Below are positions 25,230 to 63,268 of a stretch of DNA of 64,000 nt, piece after piece. This DNA comes from Amoebidium appalachense (lineage: Eukaryota > Protista > Ichthyosporea). The notes under the pieces were generated by a model. The model was not told the origin of the DNA. It worked only from the letters and a program-made list of their open reading frames with translations, and did not search any database. Location: positions 2,130,389 to 2,194,388 of the forward strand of contig CAVNZM010000004.1 in the NCBI GenBank assembly GCA_963693365.1, written 5' to 3'. Made by a program: the position numbers and the translations under genes. Position 1 is the first letter of the stretch. The number at the start of each line of letters is the position of its first letter.

Positions 25230-28140
25230 TGCGCTATAATTTTGTAGTGATGTGTTTCTCAAGCCAATCAATACATCTAATAAACAGGTCGTAGTTACGC
25301 GTGTTTAGTATAAAATCAAGGATGTTGTAATTTACAGGTAGGCTATCTTTCTGGGTGTCTGTTGTGAATGTGACGTGTGTGTGTTGCGGTATTATGTGGT
25401 CTATCAAACTACATTTGGCGATACATGACCGGTTAAACTGGTGTGTGTGTGTGTTGTTTGGGCATGCAAATGATGCCACCTTATACTTATTAGATCTCCA
25501 CTGTATAGCACGTGTACAGTAAAAGCGTGGTAATTGATCAATAATACCATCAGCTAGAGAAAGACCAGTTCTACAGGAAGGTAATATGTATTTAGGTGTT
25601 ATACACTTGCGAGTGCCATATTTGGCAATATGGTTGAGGCGGTCAGTATATATAAAACGAGACATAAGGCTTAGTTTTTCAAGGTGTATGCTTTCATCGG
25701 GTCTAGTGTCGTGTGGTATCTTTTTCCATTTGTTATATTGCGTGATTATCTTGTGATTGTGTACATGTTTAATAAGTAAGTGGCAGTCCAAAGTCACACA
25801 CACACTATTGCGGGGTTTATTTGTATTTGTGCCCAGGGGAGAAGGGGAGAGAGAGGGGAGGAAAGAGGGGAGAGGTGAGGAGGGGACAGGTCGGATAGAG
25901 AAGAGAGGGTGGGAGGGCAAATACTTCTTTAAGCGGCTTATGTGCTTATTGAATTTCAGCGCGAGATAGGATACTCTAGCAGCTATTGGGACCAGACCAT
26001 ATATCGAGAGCGTTACAGGCCCAGGTTTACAACAGTTGTTAGATAGAAAGGAGGCAACTTCTGCTTCAAGGAAATTTGCCAAGGGTTTAAGCGCTCTAGT
26101 TCTCTCTTTCTTGATCCAAGCGGCGAGAAGGGGTAAACCATATTCACATGCCGGGAAGACAAAAGTGCGAATAAATGTAAGTCTAATAGAAGGATGGAGG
26201 GGTGTGTCTTTAAAAATATTAGCCGAGAAGAAAGCTAACCGCTTACGAGCCAACTCTACCCTCTTTTCGACCATATGGGGAAACATAACACCAACAGAAT
26301 CAACCGGAACACCAAGATATTTGTATTCTGGAACTATAGGTACAGGTTTAGATGATAATGTAAATGTGTGTAAATTGTTAGCTATATCAGGTACAAGAAC
26401 ACCACATTTGTCTATGTTAAGGATCATAAGGTTTGCCTTGCACCACTCTGACACTACATCGAACAATCTTTGCAGGCGTCTAGGGGTACGGGCAAGGAGG
26501 GACAGATCATCAGCATAGAGAAGTGCAGGCGGAAAGTTATTAATAGGGTCATCGTTTTCGGCGTAAATCTTGACAGCCAAATCATCTATAAATAGGTTAA
26601 ACAAAAAGGGGCTAAGCAATGAACCCTGCAAGAGACCTCTAGTACGAGCAAAACCATATGAAAGATGCCCATTAACCACAGCTCTACCATAGGTTTGAGA
26701 CAAGAGTGCTTCTAACAGAACACCAATGCAGTGTGGTACACCCCGTGCAGCAAGCTTTTCCCATAGGAGACCAGGGGAGACAGAATCGTAAGCAGTTTTC
26801 CAATCAATAAAGCCAACATATTGTGCACCAACTTGCATAGAATCGTGCAGTGCCATTATTTGAACATAACATGAATTGTTTTTACGAAAAGCGGATTGGC
26901 ATGGGTGTATGTGAAGAATAGATTGAAACCTAGGGTGATGTGCAAATAACCTAAGTAAGCAAGCTTCAAAGAATCTACGAACAACCTGGGTTAGTGTAAT
27001 GGGGCGAAAGGATGATATGGGGCCCTCAGAGTCCTTCTTAACTATGGGGATCACTAAGGTATCTAACCAAGATGACGGGACATGTCCACATTTAACACAC
27101 CAAGAAAAGAGAGAGCTTAACATGATAGTAAGATCAGGTTTAATAGCACGATCACTTTCCTTTTGTGGGTAGGAGGGAACAAGGATTTTAAGAAACCCAG
27201 CAGGGAGTCCATCAGGTCCACAAGACTTACTAGAGCTATAACTAGATATCACAGACCATATGGCATCGGGACTGAAAAAGGGGAGGATCGATTCTATGGG
27301 GATAGATGGGTCTGCAGGCCACACAATAGGTTTCTGAGCGGGGGTCCTATCTTTAAACAGTTCCGAGAAATACTTATCAGAGTCTATGAGGGGGTCTCCA
27401 GTGGTATCACCAATAATACGAGCAGGGGGGCCAAATCGATTCATACTAGCAAGCCGGCGCAGGCTTTCCTTTTGGGACAGGGGTTCACCTAGTCTAGCGG
27501 GAGTGGTGTTTGGTAACAAGAGAGCATCGGGATATTCCTTCCTACCACCGCCAGCATAATCACCGAGATCTATCAAATCATCAACAATAAAGTTAGTGCA
27601 TGTATCTAGTACGAGATGTGAATCTGGCCTGGCTTGTGCAGATTCTAATAGGCGCATATATATAGGGTGTTTCGTAGCATAGCATACACATACATCAACT
27701 CTACCCCACTGTGACTTAAGCTGGGATAGACGGAGGCGAAAGGTGGGAGGGGGAGGGGGGAGCAGATCAAGGGAGATCTTAGGTAGGAAAAGGATAGGAG
27801 AGTGGTCAGATGACCTAGAGAGGTTAGGAGGGAGAGAGAGTTTTGACATGGTTGATGGCCAAAAGGCCACTCCCCAGTCGGTGTTGTGGGCATGGGATAT
27901 TTGAGGGAACCGCAAAGTGTGACTTTGGACATACCTTGCTAAAGGGATAGCACGCTCCGGGGGCTTAGATGGGTACCCGACACTCACTTGCAGTGTGTCT
28001 GTGTGGTGGAGTCGCGTGTTAAAATCACCTAAAATAACAGTGGGCATTGGTAACTGTGACAACTCGTGAGTCAATTCGACAACCGACATAGATGGTGGGT
28101 AATATACAAAAGTAAAAACATTATAATACATAAACACCAC
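25087..28140 (-). mobile_element. Non-LTR retrotransposon (LINE), APE endonuclease + RT; 5' part of the endonuclease lost or disrupted
   Basis: Long ORF2, short 3' UTR containing (CA)n, and a 34-nt A-run on the element strand (25087-25120) that may be the tail. Confidence 0.9.
25234..28140 (-). CDS. LINE ORF2 (C-terminal half of APE, reverse transcriptase, Cys-rich tail)
   Basis: APE motifs VYYPPS, VILGDFN, SSDHSPI; RT motifs KSCGPDGLP, FRPITL, FIDWKTAYDSV, GLLQGSLLSPFLFNLFIDDL, LLYADD, YKYLGV; no stops over ~970 codons. Confidence 0.93.
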   Translation of the reverse strand: MVFMYYNVFTFVYYPPSMSVVELTHELSQLPMPTVILGDFNTRLHHTDTLQVSVGYPSKPPERAIPLARYVQSHTLRFPQISHAHNTDWGVAFWPSTMSKLSLPPNLSRSSDHSPILFLPKISLDLLPPPPPTFRLRLSQLKSQWGRVDVCVCYATKHPIYMRLLESAQARPDSHLVLDTCTNFIVDDLIDLGDYAGGGRKEYPDALLLPNTTPARLGEPLSQKESLRRLASMNRFGPPARIIGDTTGDPLIDSDKYFSELFKDRTPAQKPIVWPADPSIPIESILPFFSPDAIWSVISSYSSSKSCGPDGLPAGFLKILVPSYPQKESDRAIKPDLTIMLSSLFSWCVKCGHVPSSWLDTLVIPIVKKDSEGPISSFRPITLTQVVRRFFEACLLRLFAHHPRFQSILHIHPCQSAFRKNNSCYVQIMALHDSMQVGAQYVGFIDWKTAYDSVSPGLLWEKLAARGVPHCIGVLLEALLSQTYGRAVVNGHLSYGFARTRGLLQGSLLSPFLFNLFIDDLAVKIYAENDDPINNFPPALLYADDLSLLARTPRRLQRLFDVVSEWCKANLMILNIDKCGVLVPDIANNLHTFTLSSKPVPIVPEYKYLGVPVDSVGVMFPHMVEKRVELARKRLAFFSANIFKDTPLHPSIRLTFIRTFVFPACEYGLPLLAAWIKKERTRALKPLANFLEAEVASFLSNNCCKPGPVTLSIYGLVPIAARVSYLALKFNKHISRLKKYLPSHPLFSIRPVPSSPLPSFLPSLSPSPLGTNTNKPRNSVCVTLDCHLLIKHVHNHKIITQYNKWKKIPHDTRPDESIHLEKLSLMSRFIYTDRLNHIAKYGTRKCITPKYILPSCRTGLSLADGIIDQLPRFYCTRAIQWRSNKYKVASFACPNNTHTHQFNRSCIAKCSLIDHIIPQHTHVTFTTDTQKDSLPVNYNILDFILNTRNYDLFIRCIDWLEKHITTKL

Positions 28141-28149
28141 ACACATGCA

Positions 28150-30045
<1,896 letters not shown>

Positions 30046-37578: not shown

Positions 37579-38063
37579 CTATTCCAGCATCTTTGTTCTC
37601 AGGCACTCCACCCATTCCGCGCCGAACCCATACCGGGCCAGGTAGTCAGTAACTGACCCGAATTCCTTTCTGATGAGGGCCAGGGTCTTCAATATGACGT
37701 CACGGTGTGCCAGGGCAAATTCCTCTGTGTGGCCCTTGCCCACGACTATCTCCTGTCGGATATGCTCACGTACCGGCTCCAAACCCGCCTGCAAACCCAC
37801 CCACCTTTGATGATTGATTTATATTAAAGAAACCAAGTGCTTTGTGATTGCATGATTGATGGTGAACACTGAACACAATGGGAATGGGATGGTCAGGTCG
37901 AGTGACGGTGTGTTGAATCAAGGAAACCAACCGGGGGAGGGGGGCGGGGCTTTGGGGGGAGGGGGGAGGGGGGGGTTTGAATGCGTCAAAAAGTACGAAG
38001 TGCACAAGAACAAACGGATAACACGATGCAGAATGCAAGCCATACATAAAGAGTATGGGGGGA

Positions 38064-38094
<31 letters not shown>

Positions 38095-38630
38095 TGGTAA
38101 GCAAAACCATTACAATCAATGCACGTTCGAGTGAAAACGAGGGGGTGGCCTCGAGATGAGCGTGAAGCTGCTGTGGGGGCGGGGGTGGGTGTTGGTGTTT
38201 TCTCTATTATTTTTTGGGGGGGGGGGGGGGGGAGGGGGAGGTTGGGATGGGAAGGGGGAGGGAGGTGGTGTGTGGAGAAAATCAATTGTTGCCCAATCGT
38301 GGAATACTTTTGTTTTTTTTATGTGTGCGCGCGCGCCCACGTGTGTTTGTGTGTGTACATGCGCGCGCGCGCGTGTGGGTGTGTGTTTGTGCGTGCGCCC
38401 GATGTGGAAGAATGTGTGTGTGTGTGTTGGGGTGAAGTGCTAGTGTGCGTGTGTGTGTGTCGGGGAAGGGGGGGGGGGGGGGGGGGGGGGGGGGAGGGGG
38501 GGGAGGGGGGCTACCTCGCTCAAGTTGAAGTCCTCTGCTATGACGTCATCAGGTACATTGAGGCAGGCAAGTACAAGAGCAGTCATGAGGCCTGTCCGGT
38601 CCTTACCATAGCTGCAGTGGTAGAGTGTGG

Positions 38631-38687
<57 letters not shown>

Positions 38688-40134
38688 ACGCACGTGTTTT
38701 GGGGGAGAGAGTTCCCCCCCCCCCCCCCCCCACAAAGAATGTGGGGGAAGGGGGGGGAATATTAGCATGTTGCGGATGTGCTGAAAATGGTCGACACATC
38801 TGTGCCCTATACCGATGCTCTTAAACATGAGCCACTGGAGAGGCATGCACATGTGTAAGTGTTCCATGTGTACACACGTGCGTATGCACCACCAATGCAC
38901 ACACGGTAACCATTTTATATCACTGGCCAGCTTGCTCCTGTCACTACTCCCCCCTCCCCCCCCCCCCCCCCCCCCCCCCCCCCAACAACACAATGTCGAC
39001 TCACGCCCTCCTTACCCTCCCATATTTCACGTTACATTCTGCTCCCCCATCCCCCCTCCTTCCCCTTCCCCCCGTCTCCGCCCCGGAGTCCTTACCCTAC
39101 ACCCCAGCCCCCACCTCACACTCCCATATGAACAGACACAAATTCCCCCCCCACCTTCCCTCTTCCCCTCCTTCACTTCTCTCCGGCTGCATGCATGCAC
39201 ACAACCACAGACCCCTGCAACCCCGCCCTCCTCATGCAGATACGCGCAGACACACACACACCGACACAAGTGTGGACGCACGCAATAAACTTTGTAATAA
39301 GGCACACATGCCCCACCCACCCACCACCCCACACCAACGTACACTTCCCCCCTCCCCCCCTCCCCCCTCCCCCTCCCTCCCCAACTTTCCACACACACAC
39401 ACACACACACAGCGAGAGACACACACACCCACACCCACCCACCCTGTTTGATGCAGCGGTCAGCAGCATGAGGGCCTGGGCCACCTGATTGGACGATGTA
39501 CGGATCATGGTCTCATACATGCAGTAGAGGCCCTTGGCATTGAGCACCTCATCAATCACCTGCCATATATGGTAAACAGTGGAAAATTCGAACACAAACC
39601 ACCTCAATATATACCAATCATTTGTCATATGAGGTATACGGTGGTAAACCTGAACCATTGATCTATCTATCAACCTTGGTGGAGAAAGGGGGGGGGAGGG
39701 GGATGGGAGGTAAGTATGCATTTCAGTGTAGAAAAACCTCCCTAGGGGAGGAGCGGAGAGGGGGGCGGGGAAGACCTAGAGGCTTTAGAAGAAACTCCCA
39801 GGGAGTTTTCTTCTCGATGGCGCAAGGAACACACAGTAAAATGGAAGTGCAGGCAAGGTGATGGGGGGGGGGGGGGGGGGGGATGGAGAGAGGTGTGTGG
39901 GGAGGGGACGGGGGGGCAGGGGAAAGAGAGACAGAGGGGTGGGAGGGCGCCGGGGGGCAGGCAGGGGGGGGGGGGGGGGGGGACGAGGGCAAGGGAGAGA
40001 GGTGGGGGGAAAGGGAGGGGGTGCTGCGTACATATGCTTCTCCCTGTGTCTGGTTGCCGGTGGCAAAAGCCTTCAGCACTTTGAATTTGGACGGTTGCTG
40101 CCAAAATAGCCCCAGAGCATACCCCAAACCTACG

Positions 40135-40181
<47 letters not shown>

Positions 40182-41814
40182 CGTGTGCGTGTGTGGTGTG
40201 AGCGTATGTGTGTGTGCATGCATGTATGTGTGTGTGTGTGTTCGGGATATTGGGCCAGGAGCAGGGGGGGCGGAGGGGGGGGGAGGGGATTAGTGTACTG
40301 TAATCCGGTCTCTCGTGCCAACAGAATTCTTATGAGTTTATACTGGTTCGTTTGTTCTTCCTTTGATTCATCGCTGCCTACCTTGGCTATGCTTCCTTCA
40401 TGAGTTTGCATAGAGAGGCAAAGAAGGAAGAGGAAGGCGCGGGGGGGGGGGGGGGGGGGGGGGGTTGAGCTGTGCGGGGGGGAGTGATCCCATATATTAA
40501 GGGAGGGAGGTGGGCGGGAGAGGTGTGTGCAGGTTGGTGTCTGGGGAGCAGGGGGAAGGGAAGAAGCTCACGGGGGTCGAGTAGCTGGCAGCTATCTCGA
40601 TCGTGATCATGGACTTGGCTATTCTCAATCCCCCCCTTTACCCCCATCCCCCTCCCTCCCCACCTTCAATCTCCACCCTCTTTGTTCCCCCCATCTATCG
40701 TTCTTTTATGTCATTGGGTTTGAGGCCTTCTCTCCTGCCTTGTAACTCCCCCCCCCCCCCCCCCCCCCTCCTCCCCCCCCCCCCCCTTGCCCACTTTCAA
40801 CCCTCCCCCTCCCCCCCCCCCCCCTAAACATCATCAACCTCCCCCACCCCCCCCCCCCCCCCCCCCCCACCCACCCCCCTCCCGCCCGCCCCATCAGCAA
40901 TACAACAGGTTGGTTGATAGCAACCGGGAAAAAAAAGTGAGAGAGAGAAGGCAAGGGGGACTCGGGGCGGAAGGGATGGGGGGGGTGAGGGATGGGGGAA
41001 GGGGGTGGGGTGAGAGGGAGGTGGAGGGAGGGGGAGGGATGGGTGGGTGGAGGGGGGGAAGAGGGGGGAGGGGCCGGGGGGGGGGGGGAAGGGGGAGGGT
41101 CACCGAGGACCGGGTAGTTGTATCTTCTCAGCTGGCCTCCATTTGGCGGCTGTGTTATGCTGGTGGGCTTAACTGTGGGTGTGGGTAGCAGTGTGTATTT
41201 GTGATAGATCTGCAGCTAATGGTCAGAACACATTCACAATGGGGTTGAGGCATCTTTGATCCACTACTATGCTTCTGCTGCCTGCTTACTATAATAGTAG
41301 CCAAATGCCATACAAAGCCTCCGTCTCCCTAATGATCTGATTAATACCTTCTCCCTCCGTCCCGCCCCCACCCCCCACCCCCCCCCCCCCCTCCTTCCCT
41401 CCCTCTCTCCCCCTTCCCCCATCCCCCTCCAACCACCCGCCCACACACCCACCAGTGGGCCACCACACAGCAAAGAAATGTTAAGATTTCTCTTTTAGTG
41501 TGTGTCGATCTTTCTGCTCTCAACGGAGCATTCAGGAACACACCACACACGCTGCCACACACATGGACTTCCCCGCTTGCCTGCGAACAGCCGCCTCCCC
41601 CTCCTCCCCCCTCCCCCCTTCCCTCCCCTCCCATCCCCCCCTCCCCCCCCCCCTCCCCCCCCAGCACACAGCCACCCGCTAGCATCCATCATCCACCCAG
41701 TCACCCATCACATATTAATGCAAAGGGGCCTTCTTTTCTCCCCCCCCCCCCCCCCCCTTCCAACCACACACGCACACGCACCGACACCCAGCCCCCCCCC
41801 CCCCCCTCCCCCCC

Positions 41815-41849
<35 letters not shown>

Positions 41850-42848
41850 AACTACCCACCAACCCCCCCGGTCCCCCCCTTCCGGCCGCCACCGCCTCCC
41901 CCCCCCCAACACACACGCACACATACTCACCGGGCAGTCTGTAGGCACGTGCTCCCTGACCTCTCTTGCTGCCCTCAGGTCCACTATTGTGTCTATTGAG
42001 TATTCTCCCACCAGCCTCCCCACGTCTGCCTCCGTAGCTTCGTCTGGCCGTGCACAGCGGAAAAGCAACCCCTGGCGCACTCTCTGTGCCCAAGCCCCAA
42101 GAAACATTACCATGGGACAGGTTCGACACCTTGCAGAGATATGAATGCTCCCACTCGCTCGACCACAGAAGTACAGAAGCGCACGCTTAAACACCCGCAC
42201 ACAAGAGCTGGTTTGTGTCTCCTTCCCGTCGACTTCCTCTTTTCTTCCAAATATTTAAATTGGTAAGGATTGTCACAGAATGCCAATCGCACCACCTAGA
42301 AGGCGTGCCTTTAAGCTAGGTAGCTGCTTCCTATATATGAGCATTGTGTACGGGTACCTGAAAGAAAACAAGTGAGCAGCATTGGTGTTTGAATTAGAGC
42401 CTCAGCCTATATAGGAATTAAAGTAAGAATTGATTCAGTTTCTTTTCGTGTCAAACCTCACCTCTGTAAGAGTGCATATGCAAGCAGTAAATTCGTGATG
42501 GACGTGATGAACTTTATGCCCTAGTTTGATGAACGAGAACTCGAGACAGCTATTGAACAAAGCCCCAATCACTGAATTGTAGGAAGCATGCGAAACACCT
42601 TGGTCCGGTAGTGCTAGCCCAGCCAACCGCACCCAGAGCATTCCACTCCATCTTCGGATCCTAAACACACCACATATGGCTACGCAAGCATAAGTACACT
42701 GAACAAGTTCGCACACACACAAAACAAACCATTGCTCACATGTAGCCGCACAACATACCTTTCCATCCTGAGTCGTGTGCCCACCAATGTCCCTGAAGTT
42801 GTGTATCTTTTCTAAGCTTCCCAGCTTTCCTTCCGTTTCAACAGTCAT
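37579..42848 (-). CDS. Tyrosine/lipid phosphatase, PtpB / Y_phosphatase3 family
   Basis: Exons 42848-42759 (HNFRDIGG), 42083-41931 (GLLFRCARPD...IVDLR), uncertain middle exons around 41180-40030, 39559-39443, 38631-38515 (catalytic HCSYGKDRTG...EDFNLSE) and 37788-37579 (EFGSVTDYL...LRTKMLE*); GT-AG junctions. Confidence 0.88.
37976..38057 (-). repeat. ~115-bp dispersed repeat, copy 2 (truncated), in phosphatase intron
   Basis: Reverse complement matches ~14270-14351. Confidence 0.85.
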
Positions 42849-43837
42849 TTTTACTGTCACCACTACTACAAGCCCAGGATGAAGCTCAATGCGAAAAAAT
42901 GAGATCGGTAGATGTCAGCGAGGTGGTGGCAATGTGATGTCCACGAACGGCAGGCAGGAGTTGCAGACTTCCTCCCCAGCGACGGGCACCACGAGGACTT
43001 GGAAACTTGGAAACGTTTAGATCGGAAACAAGAGTCTATAGTCTACGTGTATTTAACATCCCTGTCGTGTGTGTTGAAACTTCAGTCTAGCATGCACATA
43101 AGAAGATCACAACCTAATAGTGACTACAATTGTACTTAGGCAGGAGCGTGCTTCTCGAGTTTCTTTTGTTGTTATGTTCTCGGGCCAGCGGGGCTTCCAC
43201 AAAAGCAGCAACACAGTGATTGGGCAATAAAGACCGCCAAGATTTACTGATTGGTGCTCTTGTAAAACTATGTATGCATGACAAAGATTGAATGAAAATA
43301 CACAAAACCAGGAAATCTGCATTCTTTTGAGGGTGAGTAATTGTGACCGTCATCCGCCACCGCGGGACGGCTCGCCGAGTGACGCCGACTCGGCCGGCGC
43401 ACTGTATGAGCGAGATATCCCTTGGATAGTCGGGCCTATAGACCCCCCTCTCTGATAGACCCGCCTGGCATGCCCCTAGCCTGCCGCACGCATCATGCCA
43501 GCTCAGTCTCTCGCTGGCGCTCTCTCGTTCAGGTCTGATCCTTTCTTGTTGCCACGTGTCGTAGCTCTCCCACGCGTCCGACAATACAGGCTCGCCCACG
43601 TTATCACGAGGTCAGTGTCTCTTTGCCTGTCTTGTCTCCTTTCCGTGCCTGGAGCACGTTGACACATGGTAGCAGAAAAGGTTCTTTCCTTTATATGAGC
43701 GTAATCAGCGGCATAGTATAGGGGGAGCCATGAGGCTCGGGCAGGGTCTCTGCGGATCTGGTCTCTGCCTATGACTCCAAGTACAAATTCATATGCGTGT
43801 GATTGTGGGACAATCTCACTCATACAGCACTTGTACT

Positions 43838-54350: not shown

Positions 54351-55070
54351 ATGGAAGTAAAACAAATGCAACACACCGAAGCACTGTGCGAACGAGGCGT
54401 TACCTCGGTGTTTTCATCATCGAAATTCAGCCCCGTCGCTGCGCATGCCCGCTTTGCAGCCCTTCGGACAGAGCTCCGCAGCAACCATCATCTGTATGAG
54501 ATCAAGGACATACCCAAATCGGAAAGAAGATTTGAGTCTCCTTACATTTCCCACCACTCCCCCTCTTCCCCAAATGAAACAGTTTTTACTTTCCACTCTT
54601 CGAACAGTTTGAAAGATGACGATGGATCTGACGTCCCAGAGACCCCCAACACCGCACGGTCACTCATGCGAGGCCTGAGTCAACGGGCCCGGGCAAGCAG
54701 TCTGCGCAAGTCTTTCACCAGCTCCCTCGACAGCATGTTCCGTGTAAGCAGCAAAAGTAGCTTGAACTCCTCCTCGAGCAGTGTTCCAAATAGCCCTGCA
54801 AATACCTCTTATCCTACGCTCCCACAGGAAGAGGGTTTGGACATATCTCCGAGCGACTTGGTGGGTCGGCTTAGGAGCAAGTCAAACACCAGCTTGCCTG
54901 AGGTTCCAAAAAGGGGTCTGACTATTCAGAGATCCAAAACAGTGCCTTCAAAACCGACAGAGGATGAAGAGTGCAAGGGTAGGCTGGCAAGATACGGTAG
55001 TGTGAGGAGCTTCAGCAAGGGCAAACTGACCTTCAAGACTTTGATAAGGAAAAGTAGCAGTGAGGTCTGA
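54351..55070 (+). CDS. Ser-rich, probably disordered hypothetical protein, 239 aa, single exon
   Basis: Clean non-repetitive ORF from ATG 54351; many RxxS / SP sites (RARASS, RKSF, RSKS, RSKT). Confidence 0.65.
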   Translation: MEVKQMQHTEALCERGVTSVFSSSKFSPVAAHARFAALRTELRSNHHLYEIKDIPKSERRFESPYISHHSPSSPNETVFTFHSSNSLKDDDGSDVPETPNTARSLMRGLSQRARASSLRKSFTSSLDSMFRVSSKSSLNSSSSSVPNSPANTSYPTLPQEEGLDISPSDLVGRLRSKSNTSLPEVPKRGLTIQRSKTVPSKPTEDEECKGRLARYGSVRSFSKGKLTFKTLIRKSSSEV

Positions 55071-57364
55071 AGCACAAGACCTGGCCAGTTTTGCGCTTTT
55101 GTGTTGTAGTATTTATAGTGATGCTTGTATGGTTGGCGTTCTTCATAAGATCATAGTATGAGCCTCTCTGCTGGACAGGAGGTATTTCCCCTTCAAAAAA
55201 AAGGGCTCGCGTTAAGACTCTTGTGAAAATTTAGGTGCTCTTTGGTGCCACATCGTGTACAGCATACATAGATTTTGTAATTACCGCAAGTGCACCTTGA
55301 GCGTTCCCAGCACATCGACGGCATATTGAAAATAAACTTAGTGGTCCGTATCATTAGGAAGAAATTCAAGAGCTCTGATTGCACAGCCACCACCTACTAT
55401 GATGCAGCTACAGAAGAAATCCCTGCGTTTTTACAAATAACAAGCGCACAAGCTCACAAGCATTTAATCCGCAGCAGTGTCAGACACAACTCACCACTCG
55501 CCACAAGCAAATATACACATGTCATCAACGGCTTATTGATTCTCACTTTCCCTACCCTGTGTGATTCTTATAGTGTATGAGACCAGATCCAAGCCCCCCC
55601 CCCCCTCCCCCCCCCCCCCTCCCCTCCCCCCCCCCCCCCCCCCTCCCCCCCCCCCCCCCCCCGCCTCCCCCCCGCCTGCCCGATCCAGCCATTGAATCCG
55701 TCAGTCCATTTCAAAGCTTCCCTTTCGCTTTCCTCGTCTCTTTTTGTTCCAGAGCCAAACACCCAAACACGCTTTCCCCCCTCCTCCCCACCTCTCTCTC
55801 TCTCCCCCCCCCCCCCCCCTTCCCCTCCCTCCCTCCCTCCCTCCCTCCCTCCCTCCCTTCCTCCCTCCCTCTCTCCCTCCCTCCCTCCCTCCCTCCGCCC
55901 CCCTCCCTCTCCTCTCTCTCTCTCTCTCTCCCCTCCCTCCCTTTCTTTCCCTCCCTCCCCCTTTCTCTCCCTCTCTCTCTCGCTACTCCCCCCCCCCCCC
56001 TCTTGCCCACCTCCCTCCCTCCCATGCTCCCCCCTCTCATTTGCCTCTCGCTTCTCTCTTTCTCTCTCTCTCTCTCTCTCCCCCACCCCCCTCTCTGTCC
56101 CTCCAGCCCCGCCCCCCCCCTCCCCCCTTCTCTCTCTTATACGCACATGCAAAAGCCCTCTTTCCTCTGTAGCTACAACATTTTCGGCATTCTTTCGAGT
56201 CCCTGCACTCTATTTGAGCTACAGACCGTCTTGTACTTTCTTCTTTCTCCCCTCTCGACTCCATCTAGAACTTTGCTGCCAGCCTCTCTCTCACTCCCCA
56301 CCCAAACTCGTGTCCGTACCTACGTCCCCTTCGATTGTTACAGTCGCTCTACTCCCAGTTGCCCCCATTTTCAACTCCATACTCTTCCCTTTCTCCTGCT
56401 CACTTTCCCTCGAACTCCATAATCCATTGTCCTTCGTAGACTGTCCGGGTCTGGTGCAGGACCTTTTCTTGGAATAGATTCTCCGACTTCTACACAGTGA
56501 CCACGATTCCTCCAAACAGAAATCTCACGTGCTTCTTGAGCACTGGGCCAACGAGAATGCCAAGCACCTGGAACTCATTTCTACAATGCACTGGACAGTG
56601 GTACTTTATTCACACACGCATTTCGCTAAGTAGTTGCACTCCATGCTAGTCTTGAGCACCGAAACAGTGAAAACTTTTGGAGACCACACATGCACGCTCA
56701 TAAATACACTGGTGACACCAAGTGCACTTGCATACGCACACCGCGCAGACATACATGAAACCTGAAATCAGGTGCAGACGCAAGCTCCATGGCATAAAGC
56801 GCACACATGCACACACGTGTGTGGGAGCTGCAAACACACCTGGCCGTTTGAGATTGGTGACGTGCTACGCTTTGTGGGGTGGTGGCATCATTTTTGGAAC
56901 AGTTCTCAGTCAAAACTCTTTTAGATTCAACATCTTTTTGCTAAAATAACCTTGTGAAGCAACGAAAAGCCGTACTCGAAGCAAAATCCCGAAGTCACAA
57001 GTACAATCTACGCACTAATTAAACATGATCAGGCTTATGGAGCAGTTCAGATAGCACCACATCTCTATAAGGGAGCTTCGTTGCTTATGCCCGTTGAAAC
57101 AGGCAGTCTATTTCTATTGAAACTTTCGGAGTAGTCTTCTAAGTGATAATCAAGTCTAGTCATTTCTCAAAAGATCATGGTGCTCACAACAAAACACGTA
57201 CTGCTATGACCATAACTAAAAACGTATAGACTTGCCCCTACTGCCGTTTATCTAATACGTCAACAGAAAATATATTGGATTGATTTCTAATTTTTGATTC
57301 TTATCCCTTTCATTCTCTCTAACCATGATCTCTTCAGGTCCTTGTATGAGGGATCTTCTAAATG

Positions 57365-57973
57365 TTAGCTGACCGAACCCACTGTAGCCAGCTCGGCAGG
57401 TGGGCACGGGCCAGCACCGGTACTTCCCTTTCTTGATGTTCGCTTGGTGCCTTGACGGGGAAACGCAAAGCTGGCCAGTCTGGCCAGCTTAGACGATCTC
57501 CTTCTCTTTTCGCTCTCATTCATCCCCGAGGATCCAGGCGTAGTGGGACTCGGTGGGCTGGTGTTGAGATGCATGTTGGAGTCAAGCGCAACATCCTCCC
57601 ATGGGCACACATTGTCGGTTTGTTCCGATGAGTATTTTCTATTAAGGGCATTTATCTCAACCTGAAGGACACCAGCTTTTGGCACGTCTTCGTTGTATTC
57701 CCACGGGCACACTTTCTCCCCCAGTTTTTCGACCAAAATTTCGTCTGCGGTGGGTTGACTCGCTTCCTTTTCGTACTCCCAAGGACAAACTTTCTCCCCC
57801 AGTTTTTCGACCACCAGTTCGCCCGGGGTGGGTTGACTTGCTTCCTTTTCGTATTCCCAGGGACACACACTCTCTCCCAGTTTTTCCACTATCACTTCTG
57901 ACACGCTGGCAGTTTCATTCGCCTCCCAGGGGCATGGATGCACCTGCTTCTCACAAGGCGTCTCGAGGTTCAT
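57365..57973 (-). CDS. Stand-alone CPWE-repeat protein, ~202 aa
   Basis: Five CPWE motifs (HPCPWEA, SVCPWEY, KVCPWEY x2, NVCPWED); 78-bp / 26-aa in-frame tandem repeats; basic Ser-rich tail. Confidence 0.75.
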   Translation of the reverse strand: MNLETPCEKQVHPCPWEANETASVSEVIVEKLGESVCPWEYEKEASQPTPGELVVEKLGEKVCPWEYEKEASQPTADEILVEKLGEKVCPWEYNEDVPKAGVLQVEINALNRKYSSEQTDNVCPWEDVALDSNMHLNTSPPSPTTPGSSGMNESEKRRRSSKLARLASFAFPRQGTKRTSRKGSTGAGPCPPAELATVGSVS

Positions 57974-59075
57974 TTTCCGTGCAGCTTTCGATTTGCATGT
58001 GCACCTGGTGAATGCGTACACAATTTATCTGAGTTGTTCGGTGTGTGTTGTGTTGGCCCTGGCCTTAGAAATCATTTACGCCCTCCTTTTCTGGTAGAAT
58101 ATGTAGCTCGTTGTTTTGTCTATCCCCCTTGGCTACAGTAGTGCTGATCTGATCTGCTAATTAGACGTTCGCATATGTAGGCCCACTAAAGCACCTAAGT
58201 GCACGAGTACACACCGAGTACCTGGTACCCCACGCACCCACGAGACTGATAAAACCGTCCCCGGCCAGGCCTTCGCGGCTGCGGGCATTTATTGGCTTTG
58301 GACCAATGAACCGGAAAAGATTCAAAACCACAAGCACACACGTCACCACGCGTTACACTGCATGCACGGTCCCCCCTTGGGTGTGGTGGCTAGGCACGTG
58401 CATTCTTTTTTTTTGCTCTGAAGCCTTAGAGAAGCATTCCGGCTTCCTTGCTACACGCGGAATATTCCAGTATTCCGCAATCTTTTCAGTGCGGTATATT
58501 TATACCTTTTTATTTGTCACGGGAATCCGTGGCACGCCCACCTAGAGAGGTCTAGTCAGCTCTGGAGCTCGTGCGTAGGTTCGGTGGCCACAGCCACAGT
58601 CCCCAGGCCTGCACTACGCACCACATGATCTATCTCGCTTATTGCTGTGTTCTGATTGGATAGATATCATTGTACATTTTCGAGTTTTTCTTGTACCTGT
58701 GATTGGCTAGGAGCGCACCATCGAAATCGGCGACCCGTGCTGTCGTGCACTCATGAACCAACACAGAGTGTGAAATAGTGAAATTGAGTGCATGCATGTG
58801 GTACGCTTTATGGAAAAATGCATTCGGCAAACCGTCAGATATATATCGATACAAATATCGGGAGGCTGGTGCATAAATATTAAATCCATCAGAATCCATC
58901 GATCCGATCAGATCACGTCATAACATGCATTCGATGGTGTGCCATATGCGCATGCATGCATATGCATGCATTCACGTGCACGTGGTACGCTTGGCCATGG
59001 GGAAGCATAGATAATACTTGAATTCAACGTGCGGAATTCAATTACGGTAAATACGTATACATTTATTATTGGCTT

Positions 59076-59576: not shown

Positions 59577-60400
59577 CGCGGGAAAGCAAAGGGACTGGGG
59601 GGGGGCCGGGTGGGGGGAGGGGGGGGGGGAGGTGGGGGGAGGGGAGGAGGAGGGTGAAGAGGATTAACATCTTATGTACTTGAATGTCAAGTGTGATTAT
59701 GAATCACATGATTGTCTAATAGTACATGACAACGATACGGGATGTTGTTGTAGAACACTGGTGAACATCGTAGGCTGCAAAATATTGCTTACAATTCGAG
59801 CCTGCTGTGTACATGTGTACTAAAAGTCACACAGTAACAGTTCTCGTGCACGCGACAAGTATTATAATATTATCAGCAATGAAAGTCTGTAATAGTGTGC
59901 CTCTTCAATGAATGCTATCATAATTCTACAATGCACGAACTACATTCGACAAAAGTTGCATGGCCGTCTATCTCAACCTCATGGAAATGACAATCATAAC
60001 CTGGCGCAGAACAGTGACTGTACACCACCATCACCACCACCACCACCACACACACACACATCACCACCACCGATCCACACACACACACACACACATTCAC
60101 ACCGCCCACACACCCACAAGCACGCCTGCAGAAACAAACTTCACACATACACACACAGACTTTCAACAAACCACCCCATTGGGCCCCTAACTACTCTACA
60201 TTTAGTCTTCTGGCAGCGAGCATTGCATACATGTGCAGACATGCACTGACCGACATACACGCCAAAGAAAACTCTCGAAACCTCCGACCCTACCAGCTTA
60301 AACATGTAAACAGAAGCGCACAAACACAACAGTGTTACTAAAAGGCCACATAGCCAAAATAAGCACATCCTAATCACCACTAAATATCAATAGTTCCACA

Positions 60401-60764
60401 TCAGTAACAGTCCTCCAGCCAATCATCATCACTTCCCTCTTCCGCAATTTTCTCCTTCCCACTTACCCCTCCTGCAGTCCCCACCATCGCCTCCACCTGT
60501 GGTTGTGTTTTTGCACTACCAGCAACTGCATTTGGCCGTGCAAACGCATTTGCTGCGCTGATAGCTTTTGCATAGGCGCCAAAGGATGGTGGGCAAGGTA
60601 CGGAACTCGCTGAAACTGATTTGCGTACTCCAGGCAGGTTTGTGGATGGGCCTGCAGCAGAGACACCGGCCCAGGCCGTTGCCTGCACGACCTTTGTTGC
60701 TCTGGGTGCTAGATCGTTGTCGTAATGTTCAACTAGCGACCTGCAAAAGGGGGGAAAAGGGTTT

Positions 60765-60837
<73 letters not shown>

Positions 60838-61524
60838 GTCAGCTCTCACTGATAACCCTCTTCCTCTTCCTGCCTCCTGTCCACCTCCCCCTCATCCCCT
60901 TCCCCTCCCCCCACCCCGGCCCCCTCTCTCTCTGCCCTTTCCACACTCTCTACCCTGTCCCCTAACCCGGCTCCCTCTCCCTCCTCTCCCCCGTTCCCGG
61001 GTCTCTTTCCTCCTTCTCTTCAAGGCTATACAAGTAAATATTCCTCGGCCGGTGAGCTAGGTGAGGCTTTTCCAGAACACATCAGGCACACGCAACCTCC
61101 AACCTTATGCCCAAAGATGGTCCCCTTCCCCTGCTCCCTCTCTTTCGCTCCATCTATTTCCCCCACCCACCCACACTCTCCCTTCCTCTTCTCTCTCTCT
61201 GTCTCTCTCCTTCTCCCTCTTGCTTTCTTTCTCTCCTCGCATCTTTAAGCCGGTGAGTGTTTGTGTCTAGGTGTGCATGCAGCTTTATTTTATATTTGTT
61301 GTGTCCCTTACCCTCTTTTCACACCCCTTCTCCCCTTCTCTCCTTCACCTCCCCCCCCCCCCCCCCCCCCCCCCCCGGGGCCCCAACCCCCAACCCCCAT
61401 CATCTTCTACCGGCCCCCACCATGGGGCCCTACATATACATTTATGCCGCCCCCGCTCCCCCTCTCTCTCTCCCCCCCCTCTCCCCCCCCCCCCCCCCAA
61501 AAAAGGTTAATCCCTCCCTCCCCC

Positions 61525-61620
<96 letters not shown>

Positions 61621-62198
61621 TGTGGGCCCAGGGCCGGCAGCGCCGGGGGTTGGGGGGGGATCCATACCTTCTCAAGCTTGGACTTGAGGTGTTTGTTGAT
61701 GCGCTTGGTGCCTGTGTTGATAGGCCACCCGCATTCATTTGGCGGCTGATCGAGCCCGGCCGTGGTATGCTTGTAGGGGGTCGTATACTGCTTGGCCGGC
61801 GTATCATGCGTGGGGTATTATCAGTCGATTCTGTCGGTGTGGGCCCACGAGAGGAGGGGACGCTTGCTACAGAAGGGATGGTGGGGTTGCCGTACGTGTA
61901 GAGGCCGGATGGGACGGAGGGGGGACGTCGTACCGGGGGGTCTGGTTTGGCAAACGCGTAGTCTTTGGTGCTGTCTGCTTGGGTTGGGGCACCTGCACAT
62001 GCGGCGGTACACATGTTAGAAAGGGGGTCGACGGTGTGGGCGTGGGTTTCATTTTTGTTTTCGTACTTGGGTTTGTTTCTATTTTTATTATCAGAGTTGT
62101 TTCCTTTTTTGGTTTCTTTTTTCAAAAAAAAGAATTTTGGCGGTGGTGATGGTGGTGGTGGTGTGTGTGTGTGCGTGCGTGCGTGGGGTAGGGTTTGT

Positions 62199-62254
<56 letters not shown>

Positions 62255-62407
62255 AATGTCAAGGAGTGGTCCCTACACAGAAGAAATGTCGTATCGGTCT
62301 CTGTGTTCAAGGGGGAAAGGGAGTGAGGGGAGGGGGTTCGGGGGGGGGGGGGGGGGGGGGGAGGGAGAAGACGGTGGGTTCGAAGGGGGGAGGAGGGAAC
62401 GGGGAAA

Positions 62408-62448
<41 letters not shown>

Positions 62449-62592
62449 CTTTTCATTCCCTTCGTGCCTGCATTGACATCAGAGAAAACTGCATTCATGC
62501 CACTTTCTCGAATCATCATTTTTGTAAAACGGATGAGCAGAGAATGATAAGAAGGAAGAGGGGCACCGAAGTGTGGCTGCTGGGCCTCTTTG

Positions 62593-62635
<43 letters not shown>

Positions 62636-63268
62636 AGAGAGAATGCAGGAAAGGAGATATGTGTTTGGTGATCGGAGAAAGTGGGTGGGTAGAGGAGCCT
62701 CTCTGTCGACAGCCAGCCAATGACATGGGGATCTGCACATACCAGCAAGTCCAGCCATGTTGTTAGGCACCGATGCCCTTGTTCTTGGGGTGCCCCCCAC
62801 CACACTGGAGGAGAAATACGCCCCACTGGCTGCACTCGTCATGGTCTCCCGTAACCTCTTCCTGTCGTCTCTGACTGCCCGGCGCACACCCTCCATATCT
62901 TCATTGCTCCCACCACCACCGTTAACATACCCTTCTTCCACCTGCCCACCACCACCATAACTCATAAAACCACCGTTATTGGAACCGTAATCAACTGTTG
63001 TTGCCGTGCGGGTGACCCGTTTTGTTTCTTGTGGTGAGTAAGGGAGTATAGTGTCCGTCCCTCTTCGCGGTGACGCCATTATTGGGTCTGCAAAAGGAGA
63101 ATAGCGGCCAGAATCAACCCCCAACCACCCGGTGTCTGTGTGGTCGTTGAGGGGGGATGTGTCTTGGGGGAAAACAAGGGCACTATCGAGACTGTCCAGA
63201 AGACCTGGTCCGAGAGCTCCCTTTCCCAGTGATGGAGATGAAAACGGGGAGGGTGTCAAGTCTTGTAT
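60401..63268 (-). CDS. SLAIN-like microtubule plus-end-tracking protein, 3' three exons; 5' end not identified in the window
   Basis: Phase-consistent exons 63268-62743, 61992-61668, 60740-60401 (397 codons). Ser/Pro/Arg-rich with SxIP-like TSIP and TNLP; ends DDDWLEDCY*. Confidence 0.72.

Follow-up and report, generated by a model that had tools for sequence, protein, structure and literature searches.

An expressed orphan gene encodes a free-standing array of five CPWE motifs, a candidate binder of active G-alpha

Background

The motif CPWE is carried by RGS9, and Trp70 of PDE6-gamma lies within a copy of it. Repeated copies, of the form [VI]CPW[ED] and set in low-complexity sequence, make up the C-terminal PGL (VCPWE) arrays of the receptors GPR158 and GPR179. 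As far as the accessible text of PMC9027133 goes, G-alpha-o is trapped by the VCPWE motifs of GPR158, which may hold it apart from beta-gamma. The available part of PMC11437087 describes the GPR179 tail as a series of tandem PDE-gamma-like (PGL) sequences whose mutation lowers basal G-alpha-o BRET, with the function of the long arrays only hinted at so far. For PDE-gamma itself, the portions consulted of two sources state that GTP-bound transducin has a pocket between switch II and helix alpha-3 into which Trp70 inserts (bioRxiv 2020.04.01.020651), and that the 25-residue peptide PDE-gamma(63-87) served as the bait in pull-downs of GTP-gamma-S-loaded G-alpha-i/o (PMC7903328).

The evolutionary setting is known in outline, here again from the accessible sections of each paper. 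PDE6-gamma has been reported to have originated de novo in vertebrates and to lack a homologue in invertebrates (PMC4906994), G-alpha-i/o and RGS7 are present in unicellular relatives of animals (PMC3971589), and a pre-animal origin has been given for GPR179-like seven-helix domains (PMC12716839). The PGL motifs described in the literature found are all in vertebrate proteins, namely the GPR158/179 tails and PDE6-gamma. A free-standing CPWE or PGL protein was not found in the literature searched, mostly papers outside subscription, and the available portions of PMC8611064, PMC3373406 and PMC9716020 hold nothing on the motif. Here we describe a gene whose product is little more than a PGL array, which separates the function of the motif from a receptor and raises a direct question: is a PGL array alone enough to buffer active G-alpha?

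Results

An open reading frame with five CPWE motifs

The gene lies on the minus strand of the window, by which we mean the whole 64-kb stretch of DNA that was analysed. Its coding features are as follows.

57365..57973, minus strand: 202-aa ORF with five CPWE (PGL-like) motifs, ATG start at 57973
57923..57934, minus strand: CPWE motif 1, preceded by Pro and not Val, outside the tandem array
57695..57886, minus strand: 78-bp (26-aa) tandem array holding motifs 2-4 (period 78, 2.5 copies, 85% matches)
57596..57607, minus strand: CPWE motif 5, in the V-CPWE form, outside the tandem array

The motifs begin at residues 14, 37, 63, 89 and 123 and are separated by linkers of 16-26 residues. Exactly C-P-W-E is invariant across all five copies, and V stands in front in four of them, which agrees with the sequence definition of a PGL motif by its [VI]CPW[ED] core. 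Matches to the CPWE coding pattern in the DNA number five in 64 kb, all within the ORF, compared with a mean of 0.44 in shuffled sequence; at least five matches were reached by none of 100 shuffles of the window. When the protein was shuffled 100,000 times, one CPW[ED] appeared in 279 of the shuffles, two appeared in a single shuffle, and more than two in none.

The motif region (residues 1-135) is acidic, with a net charge of -18, while the tail (residues 150-185) is basic and rich in Ser and Arg, with a net charge of +9. Three basic kinase-type sites are present, RRRS (157), KRTS (177) and RKGS (181), and from these consensus sites the protein may be under kinase control. Five of the seven cysteines are those of the motifs. 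No transmembrane helix was predicted in the ORF protein (highest 19-residue hydropathy 0.47), and a Pfam search with it returned no family at its cut-off, the best E being 0.048 among 5 rows at E <= 10. The PDB gave no matches for the protein or for a profile of the five motifs, and Rfam gave none across the window. A single-sequence AlphaFold2 model had a mean pLDDT of 43.8 and no secondary structure, which counts weakly towards disorder since it was made without an alignment. The protein is likely disordered, and its composition and absence of domains fit the disordered setting in which PGL motifs occur.

The repeats are old and maintained by selection

Mismatches between the repeat copies fall 3, 2 and 12 times on codon positions 1, 2 and 3, respectively (12 of 17 at third positions; binomial p = 0.0019). 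Such a concentration at third positions indicates that the ORF frame is under purifying selection. Silent codon changes outnumber replacements by 9 to 5 in this frame, the only one of the six with a silent excess; the opposite-strand frame that shares the third positions of the ORF has 7 silent and 8 replacement changes, along with two stops. From unit to unit, silent sites differ by 0.46-0.65 and amino-acid-changing sites by 0.00-0.13. Within the 13-codon core of the repeat, the corresponding differences are 0.52-0.65 and 0.00-0.06, and units 2 and 3 are separated there by 4 silent changes and 0 replacements. A preliminary description of this DNA had called the repeats recent; with silent divergence of about 50%, they are not. 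They are old and kept by selection, and the ORF is very likely a coding gene.

The ORF is complete within one exon in the RNA observed

The features below bear on whether the ORF stands alone or forms part of a longer gene.

56589..58493, minus strand: unspliced RNA contig from run X1 (1905 bases, 0 differences, no joint or loose end)
56605..56610, minus strand: AATAAA, likely polyadenylation signal, 16 bases before the end of the X1 contig
58025..58027, minus strand: in-frame stop 5' of the ATG, within the X1 RNA contig
57974..58493, minus strand: leader, in which 7 upstream ATGs compare with 8.5 expected from composition
58004..58007, minus strand: sole YAG acceptor between 60400 and the ATG through which the main frame could be entered (phase 2; no contig seen to use it)
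60401..63268, minus strand: separate upstream gene (exons about 63268-62742, 61991-61668 and 60740-stop 60401, last splice shown in RNA)

None of the runs is on record as RNA, and the RNA nature of X1 and X2 was taken from their contigs, which splice the upstream gene. On 60120-60770 the contigs of both runs stop following the genome at 60742, and their next bases match the end of exon 61991-61668. They also run on unspliced through the stop of that gene at 60401, past 60120 and into its 3' part, which gives the upstream gene an end of its own.

The X1 contig over the ORF consists of a 520-base leader, the ORF, and a 776-base 3' part. Contigs show neither strand nor start, and the strand of this one was assigned from the ORF and the AATAAA; the only plus-strand polyadenylation signal within it is 1470 bases from the opposite end. 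The contig passes unbroken through both the in-frame stop and the acceptor-like site at 58004, 30 bases before the ATG. A piece from X2 covers 58060-58229. The largest other ORF in the contig has at most 67 codons. In the RNA observed, the ORF is thus complete within one exon, and an unspliced contig with an upstream in-frame stop means that it is not the last exon of a receptor there. This evidence comes from one sample, common to X1 and X2, and contigs drop rare isoforms; a minor isoform spliced through the 58004 acceptor is possible. X1 and X2 coverage is absent at 58494-59050 and at 56138-56588, except for short low-complexity matches near 56107, and we do not count these gaps as support for a separate start. 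A third run, X3, the nature of which is not on record, covers 57307-57724 only, and a fourth, X4, contributed no sequence.

Translation presumably begins at the ATG at 57973, whose context, AAAATG, is common to this ORF and the neighbouring phosphatase gene. An upstream ATG at 57998 opens a 15-codon frame that overlaps the main start, and such a frame, in a leader not depleted of ATGs, is unusual for an efficiently translated mRNA. A TATA-like TATAAATA was observed at 58497-58504 on the minus strand, a few bases beyond the RNA contig end at 58493 and nearer than the usual TATA-to-start distance.

Most elements of the preliminary description were recovered. It had placed an ORF of about 202 aa with five CPWE motifs at the same coordinates, with three of the motifs in 26-aa tandem repeats, no transmembrane or globular domain, and basic kinase-type sites in the tail. 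It had also called the gene single-exon and stand-alone, and had named transcription and upstream receptor exons among the points to check; the locus is transcribed and unspliced, and no receptor exon is joined to it in the RNA observed.

Relatives and similar motif arrays

No orthologue of the CPWE protein was found among near-length or longer proteins, representative sequences, or metagenome and viral contigs. The near-length search gave none from 4070 candidates, and the search of longer proteins gave one from 7997 scored, coelacanth GPR179 (E 4.4e-9). HMMER against 1.84 billion representatives returned 7 matches, four of which, including the best two, were GPR179/158; the remainder were two ankyrin-type repeat proteins (P0003 and P0006) and an acidic repeat protein (P0007). 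We rejected P0007 as a relative, since its acidic repeats are unrelated and contain no CPWE. The exact protein sequence was absent from the protein collection searched, none of 86 pattern matches in a metagenome scan was confirmed, and none of 36 viral loci had two CPW[ED] in one frame. The ESM Atlas gave no usable match, and the protein-language-model recognition score was low (1224). Neighbours in the atlas were bacterial clusters, uninformative as to range, and a search for homologues of a neighbouring gene gave none.

The match to GPR179 amounts to 33% identity in gapped pieces and does not extend beyond the short repeated motif; it is therefore no demonstration of common descent. In the four GPR179/158 tails, V or I precedes the motif in 84 of 89 CPW sites and E or D follows in 87 of 89, while in the ankyrin-type matches G precedes CPW in 19 of 23 sites. 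Judged by these flanking residues, the motif context of the ORF sides with the receptor tails over the ankyrin-type repeats.

The spacing recurs in one shark GPR179 (P0002), whose tandem PGL units are repeated every 26 residues as they are here, with unrelated linker sequence. GPR158 and GPR179 are otherwise very different proteins, with about 1800-2600 aa and 17-34 motifs against 202 aa and five, and without similarity outside the motif. Their 7tm_3 and GPR158_179_EC domains are absent from the CPWE protein, and with the RNA contig being unspliced and having an upstream in-frame stop, we rejected its classification as a GPR158/GPR179 receptor. PDE6-gamma (PDE6G/H) resembles it in being small, soluble and receptor-free and in having a polycationic region, but it has one motif and not five, and its basic region lies before the motif instead of after it. 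The profile of a PDE6 gamma subunit does not fit, with that family missing from the 5 Pfam rows at E <= 10 and no PDB matches. The ankyrin-type G-CPW[DN] repeats of P0003 and P0006, both weak search matches, also place CPW about every 25 residues, but with G before the motif and in a helical ankyrin context. With no ankyrin profile match, and V rather than G before CPW, an ankyrin-type GCPW repeat protein was likewise rejected.

Discussion

Judged from sequence, this is an expressed orphan gene that presents a new arrangement of a known motif and has a plausible function. We put at about even the chance that its product is a disordered, multivalent binder of GTP-loaded G-alpha(i/o), acting as a receptor-free trap or adaptor. 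We infer G-alpha binding by analogy, the proposed docking of each CPWE motif on active G-alpha-i/o being drawn from the GPR158, GPR179 and PDE-gamma literature. As in PDE6-gamma, the Trp of each motif would insert into the switch II/helix alpha-3 pocket that is formed only in active G-alpha, and linkers of 16-26 residues would let each motif take its own G-alpha. The bound subunit could then be held away from effectors and G-beta-gamma, or be offered to an RGS protein. The basic Ser/Arg tail might tether the product to acidic membranes and be switched by phosphorylation. The preliminary description had suggested a receptor-free G-alpha effector or sink. Its receptor-free part is supported, in that the RNA contigs, selection and hydropathy point to a stand-alone, non-membrane protein. 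The motif matches PGL in form and in the search results; the effector or sink is what we propose by analogy. Motif 1, which has neither V nor I in front, counts against G-alpha as the partner. A complex prediction for residues 44-79 with a stand-in metagenome G-alpha-o (L042), GTP and Mg gave no answer (0.00 in both runs, mark 0.34), with the alignment unused, the controls not folded, and a method unproven for peptides, and we give it no weight in either direction.

The strongest competitor, which we nonetheless consider unlikely, is a stand-alone protein whose CPWE repeats bind something else, such as a TRAF/MATH-type domain, with the PGL likeness a coincidence. Only a four-to-five-residue core is held in common with GPR179, and CPW recurs in the unrelated ankyrin-type repeats. 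A CPWE site of GPR179 also fits the TRAF6-type consensus PxExx[FYWHDE], according to the part of bioRxiv 2024.07.23.604860 that was available, and by eye so do two of the five motifs here. The other three copies fail that consensus. No copy, including the pair outside the array, departs from C-P-W-E, and four have V in front, which is the PGL signature. That the repeats act by way of their cysteines, as a scaffold for metal binding, redox chemistry or acylation, seems to us very improbable: the acidic setting and the share of cysteines within the motifs would suit it, but paired Cys/His ligands are absent, and Pro, Trp and Glu vary no more than Cys does.

Two further readings concern the gene and not the partner. 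The ORF could be an alternative last exon or have a spliced N-terminal extension, entering through the acceptor at 58004 from, for example, exon 61991-61668. Because the donor of that exon (at 61668) and the acceptor are both phase 2, such a join would be in frame. ATGs in the leader are at background level, as in an intron, the 5' part of the upstream gene is probably beyond the window, and a rare isoform would be dropped from the contigs. Against this, both RNA runs join exon 61991-61668 to 60740, the X1 contig is unbroken across 58004, where no loose end appears, and an X2 piece covers 58060-58229. At E <= 0.01 Pfam assigns no family to the upstream exons within the window. Of the hydrophobic stretches found upstream, none falls in a modelled exon, and most belong to microsatellites or untranslated sequence. 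We regard this alternative as improbable. Still harder to credit is that the transcript codes for no protein, or that translation has ceased and the ORF is a relic in decay. The seven upstream ATGs, the lack of an orthologue in our searches and the low recognition score would agree with it, but the frame is open over all 202 codons, its changes are strongly skewed towards silent ones, and the contig has no further ORF of more than 67 codons.

If the proposed G-alpha binding is correct and the host is not an animal, G-alpha trapping by the PGL motif would exist outside animals and without a receptor. That active G-alpha-i/o is titrated in a non-animal eukaryote by a multivalent PGL-motif protein free of any receptor is a claim that we make tentatively, holding it less probable than binding as such. 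This mode of trapping would then be either ancient, a module that was afterwards joined to GPR158/179 and taken up again in PDE6-gamma, or a separate invention directed at that pocket. The preliminary description had gone further and concluded that the motif and this mode of regulation predate animals. Such a conclusion is unsupported, even with a non-animal host, as a five-residue motif can arise by convergence; the reported de novo origin of PDE6-gamma in vertebrates (PMC4906994, from the text accessible) is an indication that it can arise independently. A host that is not an animal would make the gene relevant to the origin of PGL-type G-protein control. Should G-alpha prove not to be its partner, the protein would be an orphan repeat protein and of modest interest.

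Genomic neighbourhood

The upstream gene (60401-63268, minus strand) is expressed and spliced and encodes a long low-complexity product, with its 5' part upstream of 63268. The product ends in an acidic, Trp-containing tail, which is reminiscent of the acidic motifs that bind Arp2/3. On the plus strand, an ORF at 54351-55070 converges on the CPWE gene and encodes a Ser/Arg-rich protein of 239 aa with many basic kinase-type sites; it had no Pfam family and was absent from the protein collection searched. A multi-exon gene at about 37580-42850 on the minus strand has Pfam matches to Y_phosphatase3 (PF13350) in four exons; this family is uncommon in animals, and its presence makes it plausible that the host is not one. 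The open frame at 25237-28182 (minus strand, 982 codons) matches the reverse transcriptase family RVT_1 at E 5e-28, with no other Pfam match, and is likely a non-LTR retrotransposon. Introns are of the GT-AG type, and CpG occurs at 0.50 of expectation. Across the window, introns are full of long C/G homopolymer runs and CA/TG microsatellites, which give rise to many spurious Pro/Gly-rich ORFs.
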